Origin: Pseudomonas phage CRPAP1904
Strand: one strand, 5' to 3'
Length of the DNA: 62,430 nt
Sequence record: PQ741025.1
This document shows, piece by piece, positions 29,576 to 30,139 of the stretch (within the stretch, counting starts at the first letter, position 1; every line of letters starts with the position of its first letter). Made by a program: the position numbers and the translations under genes. The notes beneath the pieces were generated by a model, which was not told the DNA's origin, did not search any database, and saw only the letters and a program-made list of their open reading frames with translations.

Positions 29576-30139
29576 GTTCCAGGGCGGAAATATCGCCCTG
29601 GCGCATTTAACCATAATCGATATTCTGAGAAACGTTCTCAACAAGGGAGGTCGGACAGGGCCAAGATCGTAACATCGTGACAGCCTGGGTCAGCTGGAGG
29701 CCGCGTGGCACTAGGCTGTCACGAATGTCACGAATGTCACGAAAAAACTTTTCGGAGCTGGAGCACGTACATACTACCCTGTACCCCCGGCGGCCCTAAG
29801 TATCTATATTCTTTATATATTTATTTTATTTTTTCTGTAGTGGAATAAAGTAGTAAGAATCGTAACATCGTAACAGAAATCGCTGTAAGCCCCGTGGCAC
29901 TAAGGCTCCAGCGTGTTACGAAATTTTGGCCCGTTCCGGAAATTTCGTAACATCGTTGCAATTGATAGTAGTGCTCTGGACCATCAACGGTATCGATACA
30001 GGCTGTAGGGCACCAAATAGGCCCGTGGTGCGCTCCAGTTGTGGAACCGCCACTCTGCTACCCCTACGGCGGGAACGTGCAGCGTGGCGCAGCTCCGGGC
30101 CGGCTGGCATACTTTCCGCAGCTCACAGGAGGGCGCACC
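29576..30139. promoter_or_regulatory. AT-rich repeat island A (candidate origin / promoter array): conserved 38-nt motif, TGTCACGAA x3, TCGTAAC heptamer arrays, ~80-bp ~25% GC core, 13/12-nt inverted repeat
   Basis: Read directly; paralogous to island B at 59878..60553. Confidence 0.5.
29578..29612 (+). terminator. possible terminator hairpin (CCAGGGCG-GAAATAT-CGCCCTGG) after the giant gene
   Basis: 8-bp GC stem read directly; weak T-tract. Confidence 0.35.

Follow-up and report, generated by a model that had tools for sequence, protein, structure and literature searches.

Island A of Pseudomonas phage CRPAP1904 as one copy of a candidate duplicated iteron-type replication origin, with a box recurring in other phages, satellites and plasmids

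Background

The genome of Pseudomonas phage CRPAP1904 (sequence record PQ741025.1) was analysed over its recorded length of 62,430 nucleotides, hereafter referred to as the window, with the focus on a gene-free interval of 564 bp at positions 29576-30139, designated island A. As judged by mapping the annotation of the related phage phiR18, island A is flanked by the gene for a 2107-amino-acid (aa) virion protein on one side and by five plus-strand genes ending with the tail fibre gene on the other, and it carries short repeats arranged around an extremely AT-rich stretch together with a conserved 21-nt box. A second interval built of the same modules, island B (~59940-60390), lies ~30 kb away. 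The two islands are considered here as candidate copies of a replication-origin module, and the box is followed into other replicons. CRPAP1904 is 95-97% identical to the Pseudomonas phages phiR18, KPP25 and YMC17/07/R4900a of the genus Kochitakasuvirus, and the paper describing its genome, which gives the length as 62,430 bp, makes no mention of promoters or of an origin (PMC13340246).

Results

Anatomy of the two islands

Island A had been described as non-coding in a first-pass annotation of the window, and this holds, since no open reading frame (ORF) longer than 47 aa lies wholly inside it and the phiR18 annotation is empty there. At its centre is an extreme AT-rich stretch (29789..29869, GC ~0.21), a candidate DNA-unwinding element, of which the 3' end (TTTTCTGTAGTGGAATAAAG) is identical in island B. 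The AT-rich core noted earlier at this place corresponds to one of the two lowest-GC 80-nt windows of the genome, 29801-29880 (GC 0.21); the other, 60220-60299 (GC 0.20), belongs to the AT-rich stretch of island B (60200..60295, GC 0.20, the lowest of the genome), and the next lowest value is 0.40. Outside the genus, a 17-mer taken from the AT-rich element gave chance matches only.

The AT-rich stretch is surrounded by heptamers of the form TCGTRAC, hereafter called iterons. The genome holds 32 of them, where 18.6 +/- 4.5 would be expected; 9 are in island A and 13 in island B, so that 22 of the 32 are gathered in ~1.2 kb. In island A they stand at 29667+, 29675+, 29718-, 29727- and 29736- to the left of the AT-rich stretch and at 29860+, 29868+, 29915- and 29945+ to its right, thereby flanking it on both sides and in both orientations, as is expected of an iteron origin served by an SF3 initiator. 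The heptamer pairs reported previously are present as TCGTAAC-A-TCGTGAC on the left (29667..29681, plus strand) and TCGTAAC-A-TCGTAAC on the right (29860..29874, plus strand), and the triple tandem repeat of TGTCACGAA is found at 29716..29742, where the three units represent three TCGTGAC iterons on the minus strand. The reported inverted repeat, GTTACGAAATTT ... AAATTTCGTAAC (29915..29951), is also present, but amounts to two iterons in opposite orientation.

A full conserved box with its arms, CTGTAAGCCCCGTGGCACTAAGGCTCCAG (29883..29911, plus strand; conserved core AAGCCCCGTGGCACTAAGGCT), scores 35.7 bits with a weight matrix built from unrelated replicons. The box, AA[C/G]CCNCGTGGCACTAAGGCT (21 nt), has four copies in the genome where none is expected. 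It forms part of a longer 38-mer, the 34-nt body of which, GTGGCACTAAGGCTCCAGCGTGTTACGAAATTTT, is found with at most one mismatch at 29894-29927 (+) and on the minus strand of island B at 59941, 60020 and 60108, none being expected in shuffled sequences. Two copies of the 38-mer had been assigned to island A; the full copy exists, but the first (29694-29718, ...CGCGTGGCACTAGGCTG) carries a 1-nt deletion rather than an R substitution and lacks the 3' half. This degenerate copy, CTGGAGGCCGCGTGGCACTAGGCTG (29694..29718, plus strand), in which the 3' arm is replaced, occupies the place held by a second box or by a 'type-2' palindrome in the phage Persinger and the satellite pPSEST02, both described below. 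Island A can thus be read as iterons, degenerate or 'type-2' box, iterons, AT-rich DNA, iterons, box and iterons.

The recurrence of these modules in island B, already suggested by the first reading of the sequence, is borne out by an alignment of the two islands across ~185 nt, in the same orientation and ~30 kb apart, the common order being AT-rich DNA, TTTTCTGTAGTGGAATAAAG, iteron pair, box and inverted iterons. The copy of the right half of the module in island B (60286..60385, plus strand) consists of an iteron pair, a box that has diverged (CTGTGCCCCTAGTGCTGCCTGGGCTGGAG), inverted iterons and one further iteron, the iterons remaining intact. Island B also holds three tandem 49-nt units on the minus strand (59939..60154), 79 and 88 nt apart, each made up of a box (cores at 59960-59982, 60039-60061 and 60127-60149), GTYACGA and AAATTTTTT, with TCGTGAC iterons between the units. 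The box-GTYACGA-AAATTTTTT unit is kept in a more distant relative (L008), in which the spacers between units vary. Island B is not at a switch of coding strand: it sits within a block of minus-strand genes, where the homologues of phiR18 gp59 and gp58 are its neighbours, and the minus-strand gene upstream of it ends in a GC-rich hairpin.

Comparison with phiR18 gives 99.3% identity over island A, with all four differences outside the module. The module itself (29663-29952) is 100% identical, against 98.0% and 94.7% in the flanking coding sequence, a difference which points to purifying selection on non-coding DNA. At the edges of island A, a GC-rich hairpin, CCAGGGCG-GAAATAT-CGCCCTGG (29579..29601, plus strand), follows just after the stop codon of the 2107-aa gene; it is without a T-tract and was not called as a terminator. 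On the other side, a leader of ~190 nt (29953..30139, plus strand) precedes the homologue of phiR18 gp02, whose start codon is the ATG at 30140, and this leader holds the only phiR18 substitutions of this half of the island.

The conserved box in other replicons

To follow the box, IMG/VR and a set with one genome for each bacterial species were scanned with exact patterns; as exact patterns of 14-18 nt give many chance matches, only matches with both box flanks were counted. The search of the 38-mer in other genomes, proposed in the first-pass annotation, was informative for a part of it, only the first ~21 nt being conserved outside. A gap-free alignment of 45 copies (nnAnnnnCTGAAACCCGCGTGGCACTAAGGCTnCAG) shows conservation that spans columns 12-32 and then stops. 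With a weight matrix derived from unrelated replicons only, the four CRPAP1904 boxes reach 36-38 bits against a shuffle maximum of 15.9, and no other site of the genome scores. Nearly every member of the family has element-specific short repeats to its left and right, examples being GTYACGA (CRPAP1904), GTCCCAGTT, CCGGAACAT, TTAGAAAAG, ATTACCAACAG, GGGAACAT, GTGGTGGGAT and GTGACCA, and in GC-rich genomes with the box an AT-rich stretch lies within ~150 nt of it. Sister 29-nt 'type-2' palindromes, with the same arms and other centres, occur in the same modules, and a variant with CGGCAC (GCGGCAC) at the centre is found in Pbunavirus. Among cultured phages the box is confined to Pseudomonas aeruginosa phages of four unrelated genera, namely Kochitakasuvirus, Phikmvvirus (~95 records), Harrisonburgvirus and Pbunavirus. 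It was not found in any of 5,426 complete Escherichia coli genomes, and a literature search with a 12-mer returned only unrelated eukaryotic primer sequences.

The genes around the box were compared in 43 loci. A primase, helicase or initiator gene was detected within 3 kb in 13 of them by BLAST against a reference set of annotated replication proteins, a count that consists of self-matches except at L108 and L112 and mainly measures distances. In 10 of these 13 loci the nearest replication gene, encoding a DUF5906, VapE, DUF927 or DUF3987 helicase or a Toprim primase, is 123-400 nt from the box. No protein is common to the flanks of all box loci, and when six box replicons were compared the primase(-helicase) was the sole protein family present in at least four.

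In pPSEST02, a 9.9-kb satellite like the phage-inducible chromosomal islands (PICIs), two identical boxes and GTGGTGGGAT iterons are arranged around an AT-rich patch directly after the gene for a VapE primase-helicase, and in pHS87b, an 11.2-kb P4-like satellite, the box follows Toprim and DUF927 genes. The box stands beside primase genes in Harrisonburgvirus Persinger and Pbunavirus PA_PX. Persinger and pPSEST02 repeat the composite syntax of island A, and the two boxes of PA_PX face away from AT-rich DNA, like the box sets of island B. In a Pantoea prophage the box lies in the middle of the gene for a 300-aa O-like initiator, together with iterons, an AT-rich stretch and a palindrome, and a DnaB helicase gene is found just downstream. 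The box adjoins HTH_36 Rep-like ORFs in Pseudomonas contigs, and an Azotobacter contig with the box encodes a MobA/MobL relaxase. A classical plasmid oriV (Pseudomonas plasmid pA7J1, L191 880-1095; also L164 7450-8000) combines, in this order, a DnaA box (TTATCCACA), five 22-bp iterons, a variant of the box (GGCCACGTGGCACAAGGGCTGTAG) and CTTGTTTTT repeats beside rep; the box there may equal the 'GC-rich block' described next to the AT-rich DNA of some plasmid origins.

A different neighbour occurs in low-GC metagenomic phages (L005, L010, L019, L153; Sediminibacterium), where the box is 45-70 nt from an ORF of ~410-450 aa (phrog_4756 / phrog_2467). One of the two families of these ~440-aa ORFs has GGRFY, RxxVKxAVNxMFN and VHDSF motifs that faintly recall single-subunit RNA polymerases. 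Homology to such polymerases was not supported: profile comparison with the phiKMV RNA polymerase gave a probability of 0.13 and searches of Pfam and the PDB were empty.

On the minus strand of phiKMV (NC_005045, L183) the box occupies 725-760, with the terminal repeat on one side of it, the early promoters on the other and repeats of the CTCCCTGGGTGG type around it. Immediately next to it is GGTTATGTCACACACAATGG, which is the orphan antisense promoter P001 of the phage RNA polymerase, mapped in LUZ19; P001 has been given no other interpretation than that of blocking read-through (PMC10914365). The promoter motif of the phage polymerase is distinct from the box, and its three further copies are all without a box. 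The promoter takes the place that iterons hold elsewhere, suggesting a box plus an initiator site as the common unit, and the box/P001 region is a candidate replication origin of Phikmvvirus.

The candidate initiator

CRPAP1904 encodes an SF3 helicase of the DUF5906 / P4 family, an 801-aa primase-helicase (46474..48879, minus strand), so that a candidate initiator of the expected class is present in the same genome as the islands. The protein has a weak match to the 'phage/plasmid primase, P4 family' model. Its AlphaFold model, built with an alignment of 32 sequences, has a mean predicted local distance difference test (pLDDT) score of 85.9 and matches the structures of NrS-1 polymerase, poxvirus D5, the Rep proteins of the Staphylococcus aureus pathogenicity islands SaPI5 and SaPI1, papillomavirus E1, adeno-associated virus Rep and simian virus 40 T antigen, the last three of which are origin-binding SF3 initiators. 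Invariant DLDG and AH motifs (DxD / xH) near the N-terminus suggest an archaeo-eukaryotic primase domain. At the C-terminus the model shows a helix at 680-701, helices at 709-719 and 727-735 and a beta-hairpin at 742-754, with pLDDT ~85-90 and no separate fold match for 709-754. In a 69-kb relative (L185), whose primase-helicase shares 45% identity, the DNA at 9716-10000, immediately upstream of the primase-helicase gene, contains an 80-nt stretch of GC 0.20; this stretch partly resembles the AT-rich element of CRPAP1904 and has CTTAC-type repeats nearby and no box.

Discussion

Interpretation as a duplicated origin

The features established above, namely the anatomy of the islands and its statistical excess, its conservation, what surrounds the box in other replicons and the class to which the 801-aa protein belongs by its structure, can be brought together in more than one way. 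The best-supported reading, which draws on the anatomy, the selection acting on it, the neighbours of the box elsewhere and the class of the phage helicase, is that islands A and B are two copies of one replication-origin module of the iteron type, for which the phage's own 801-aa SF3 primase-helicase would be the initiator; a probability of about 0.55 is given to it. The Rep proteins of the SaPIs are self-loading and use a C-terminal winged helix to bind iterons of 5-6 nt, which lie to either side of an AT-rich region (PMC9371898). By analogy, the CRPAP1904 initiator would bind the TCGTRAC heptamers, probably through its C-terminal helix-helix-hairpin domain, melt the ~80-bp AT-rich element and load itself as a hexameric helicase in the manner of these proteins, with priming beginning nearby, and both islands would fire. 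The box, lying between iterons next to the AT-rich element, would be a portable origin component of phages, satellites and plasmids with different initiators.

What the box itself might do can be put forward only as a working guess, namely a signal for primer start or loading, since 5'-GTG is read on either strand of its invariant centre, GTGGCAC. The best recognition site of the NrS-1 polymerase primase is 5'-GTGG/GTGA (PMC8718748). The guess has its limits, as four bases cannot account for 21 conserved ones, several box replicons use Toprim primases and Pbunavirus has GCGGCAC.

A wider proposal is that the box is a previously undescribed portable 'origin box', which has spread horizontally among phages, satellites and plasmids of several bacterial phyla and serves unrelated initiators, i.e. 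SF3 primase-helicases, O-like proteins, plasmid Rep and a T7-type RNA polymerase; the iterons would be a private address and the box a common signal to a conserved reader, e.g. for the start of priming. We regard this as tentative, possible rather than probable. The islands themselves are of a known element type, and the new part is the box common to phages, satellites and plasmids.

Several observations weigh against the origin interpretation. The cumulative GC skew, a check named in the first-pass annotation, has its minimum at 41,767 (44.2 kb after detrending) and its maximum at 62,250; no inflection is seen at island A, where the skew is ~0 on either side, and the maximum near island B coincides with the switch of coding strand. 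The origin suggested by that annotation gains from the homologous modules beside or inside initiator genes of other replicons and from the encoded SF3 initiator-helicase, but not from skew. Origins of this kind are expected next to the initiator gene, and islands B and A are 11 and 16.5 kb from the 801-aa gene; in a relative with a 59% identical primase-helicase, neither a box nor an AT-rich island is present within 10 kb of that gene. The C-terminal DNA-binding domain of the 801-aa protein is a prediction from the secondary structure of the model only. More than half of the 43 box loci have neighbours without assigned function or end with the contig, and one 84-kb Sediminibacterium contig carries three box + ORF pairs (L177 716-2041, L169 6455-7765, L155 668-1894), which is odd for origins. 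Finally, all four full boxes are co-oriented with the downstream genes, and ~83 nt separate the end of the last island B box from the start codon of the first minus-strand gene downstream, an arrangement that also fits promoters. As a separate observation, the skew minimum (~41,800-44,200) falls inside the minus-strand block with the DNA polymerase and SNF2 helicase genes, without a switch of coding strand.

Alternative explanations

The orientation and spacing of the boxes favour the main alternative, in which the islands are promoter or operator arrays, the box, or the box with GTTACGAAATTTTTT, being read by the host RNA polymerase redirected by a phage factor and the TCGTRAC heptamers being operators of a phage regulator. 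Island B would then drive the DNA-metabolism operon from three tandem promoters, for which a restart there is plausible given the GC-rich hairpin that ends the upstream minus-strand gene, and island A would drive the tail-fibre/lysis genes. The retention of the box-GTYACGA-AAATTTTTT unit in L008 with variable spacers and the mapped transcription start of P001 just downstream of the box in LUZ19/phiKMV agree with this. We nevertheless consider it unlikely. The modules have no sigma-70-like -35/-10 pair: scans for hexamers 16-18 nt apart found one and two weak sites per ~1 kb, not above the level in shuffles and none at a box. The large ORFs of CRPAP1904 include no recognisable gene for an RNA polymerase or a sigma factor, and the first-pass suggestion of the 38-mer as a promoter for a phage transcription factor is unsupported. 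In other replicons the box often points into or against genes, as it is in convergent orientation to primase-helicase genes in L003, L094, L100 and L145, falls within an initiator gene in L170 and, in PA_PX, forms a divergent pair around AT-rich DNA. In phiKMV, moreover, the phage-polymerase motif is separate from the box and has three copies without it. A T7/T3-like promoter (CACTAA|GG) was also considered and rejected, CRPAP1904 having no polymerase gene and the real phiKMV motif being a different, adjacent element. The two roles are not exclusive and could coexist, as in transcription-activated origins such as those of T7 or lambda.

A role of the box as a hairpin, whether in a structured RNA, as a terminator or as a signal for single-strand initiation that is extruded when the DNA melts, appears quite improbable. 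There is partial complementarity between the arms of the box (CTGnAAsCC / GGCTnCAG), and folding energies of -7.7 kcal/mol (z = -2.6) and -12.7 kcal/mol (z = -6.4) were obtained for the island A copy and for the 'type-2' palindrome of L094, respectively. However, the three island B copies and the pPSEST02 copy fold no better than shuffles (z +0.2 to +1.3), and pairing in a fixed register across the family is 67.9% against 66.1% in shuffles, 40 of 500 of which are as high. Searches of Rfam, with the window at gathering thresholds and both islands at E <= 10, gave no match beyond noise, and neither a tRNA nor a tmRNA was detected.

A sigma-54 (RpoN) promoter or docking site, with TGGCAC as the -24 and CTGCA as the -12 element, is very unlikely, even though the family as sampled has TGGCAC throughout, about one member in four reads TGGCAC-N7-GC with TGCA at the correct spacing and all identifiable box hosts are from lineages that, from general knowledge, have RpoN. 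There is also a precedent in the Pseudomonas phage YuA, which has a sigma-54-like promoter (PMC10914365). The essential GC at -13/-12 is present in only 12 of the 45 copies, conservation stops at that point and the four CRPAP1904 copies have CC, reading TGGCACTAAGGCTCC; the spacer TAAGGCT is nearly invariant though sigma-54 does not require it; and Pbunavirus has CGGCAC. No gene for an enhancer-binding protein was found, the 490-aa AAA protein of the phage matching the classical AAA family and not the sigma-54 activators.

In headful phages, pac is usually in or near the small terminase gene. A packaging, genome-end or partition-type site (pac, a centromere-like array or a decoy for a host protein) is a very poor explanation for the islands, since, although the phiKMV box lies ~320 nt inside of the left terminal repeat among short repeats and repeat arrays for one protein are generic to such sites, assembly gave a circular CRPAP1904 genome, the P22-type portal and Terminase_6N large subunit of a relative suggest, from general knowledge, headful packaging with pac then expected near the small terminase gene, ~30 kb from either island, and the recurrent neighbours of the box are replication genes rather than terminase or partition genes.

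Comparison with known origins

The duplicated-origin interpretation can be set against several known systems. One is that of the SaPI/PICI origins, where, as in the islands, iterons of 5-7 nt in both orientations surround a central AT-rich region, and of which the Rep, like the 801-aa protein, is an SF3-type initiator-helicase with a C-terminal DNA-binding domain, predicted in the case of the 801-aa protein; the 21-nt box carried by the CRPAP1904 modules is without mention in that description of SaPI origins (PMC9371898). The PICI-like pPSEST02 carries a box module of the CRPAP1904 type directly after its VapE gene. Unlike the SaPI/PICI origins, the CRPAP1904 modules are two in number and distant from the initiator gene.

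The satellite phage P4 has two separated cis elements, ori and crr, 4.5 kb apart, which carry the same short iterons and are bound by the C-terminal domain of the alpha primase-helicase. The two-site arrangement of CRPAP1904 recalls this, but with 30 kb between the sites, and the P4-like pHS87b carries the box. The proteins differ at the N-terminus, where the 801-aa protein has the archaeo-eukaryotic primase signature and P4 alpha a DnaG-type motif.

The lambda-type ori within the O gene and the oriV of iteron plasmids follow the same grammar of iterons and AT-rich DNA, and the box occurs within such origins in the Pantoea prophage and in pA7J1, although to our knowledge it is not part of lambda's own ori. 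Unlike these systems, CRPAP1904 has no O-like or Rep_3-type initiator, and no DnaA box was noted in the islands. The primary origin of T7 consists of phage-polymerase promoters followed by AT-rich DNA, and the phiKMV box likewise precedes a phage-polymerase promoter; in contrast, no phage RNA polymerase was detected among the large ORFs of CRPAP1904. The oriV of IncQ plasmids (RSF1010) contains a conserved GC-rich/AT-rich block and the hairpins ssiA/ssiB, at which RepB' primes. The likeness here is by description only, in the conserved non-iteron block between iterons and AT-rich DNA and in the priming signals on both strands, and unlike the ssi hairpins the box does not behave as a conserved hairpin.

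Other features of the genome

Bases 1-127 of the window are repeated identically at 62304-62430, which looks like the k-mer overlap of a circular assembly; the duplicate is apparently included in the 62,430 bp, and the circular unit would thus be 62,303 bp. The 2107-aa virion protein encoded just upstream of island A (23252-29575, plus strand) has an HExxH motif (FHESMHAL), and its only matches are to families labelled 'virion structural protein'. One of the first genes downstream of island B (58189-59265, minus strand) encodes a 358-aa pentapeptide-repeat protein with weak similarity to HalA, MfpA and Qnr, which may be a DNA mimic. A 253-aa protein (44891-45652, minus strand) has an Nmad5 (nucleotide modification associated) domain, is labelled as DNA polymerase in PHROGs and hints at DNA modification in CRPAP1904. 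In-frame tandem repeats are present in ORFs at 56765-56853 (GGCTGGGCT, ~9 times) and at 2014-2109 (GACCGCTACCAAGAC, 5 times).

Conclusions

Origins are unmapped in most therapeutic Pseudomonas phages, including those of Kochitakasuvirus, Phikmvvirus and Pbunavirus. If the two islands are origins, they would provide handles for phage engineering, for phage-derived replicons and for learning why the phage retains two copies half a genome apart. If the box is indeed a common origin component, its sequence alone would mark origins, and the orphan antisense P001 of phiKMV and LUZ19 would be the origin of these phages, which gives a testable function to a conserved and unexplained promoter. The box may thus serve as a landmark for the prediction of origins in phages, in PICI- and P4-like satellites and in some plasmids, and it raises the question of the conserved machine that would read it.

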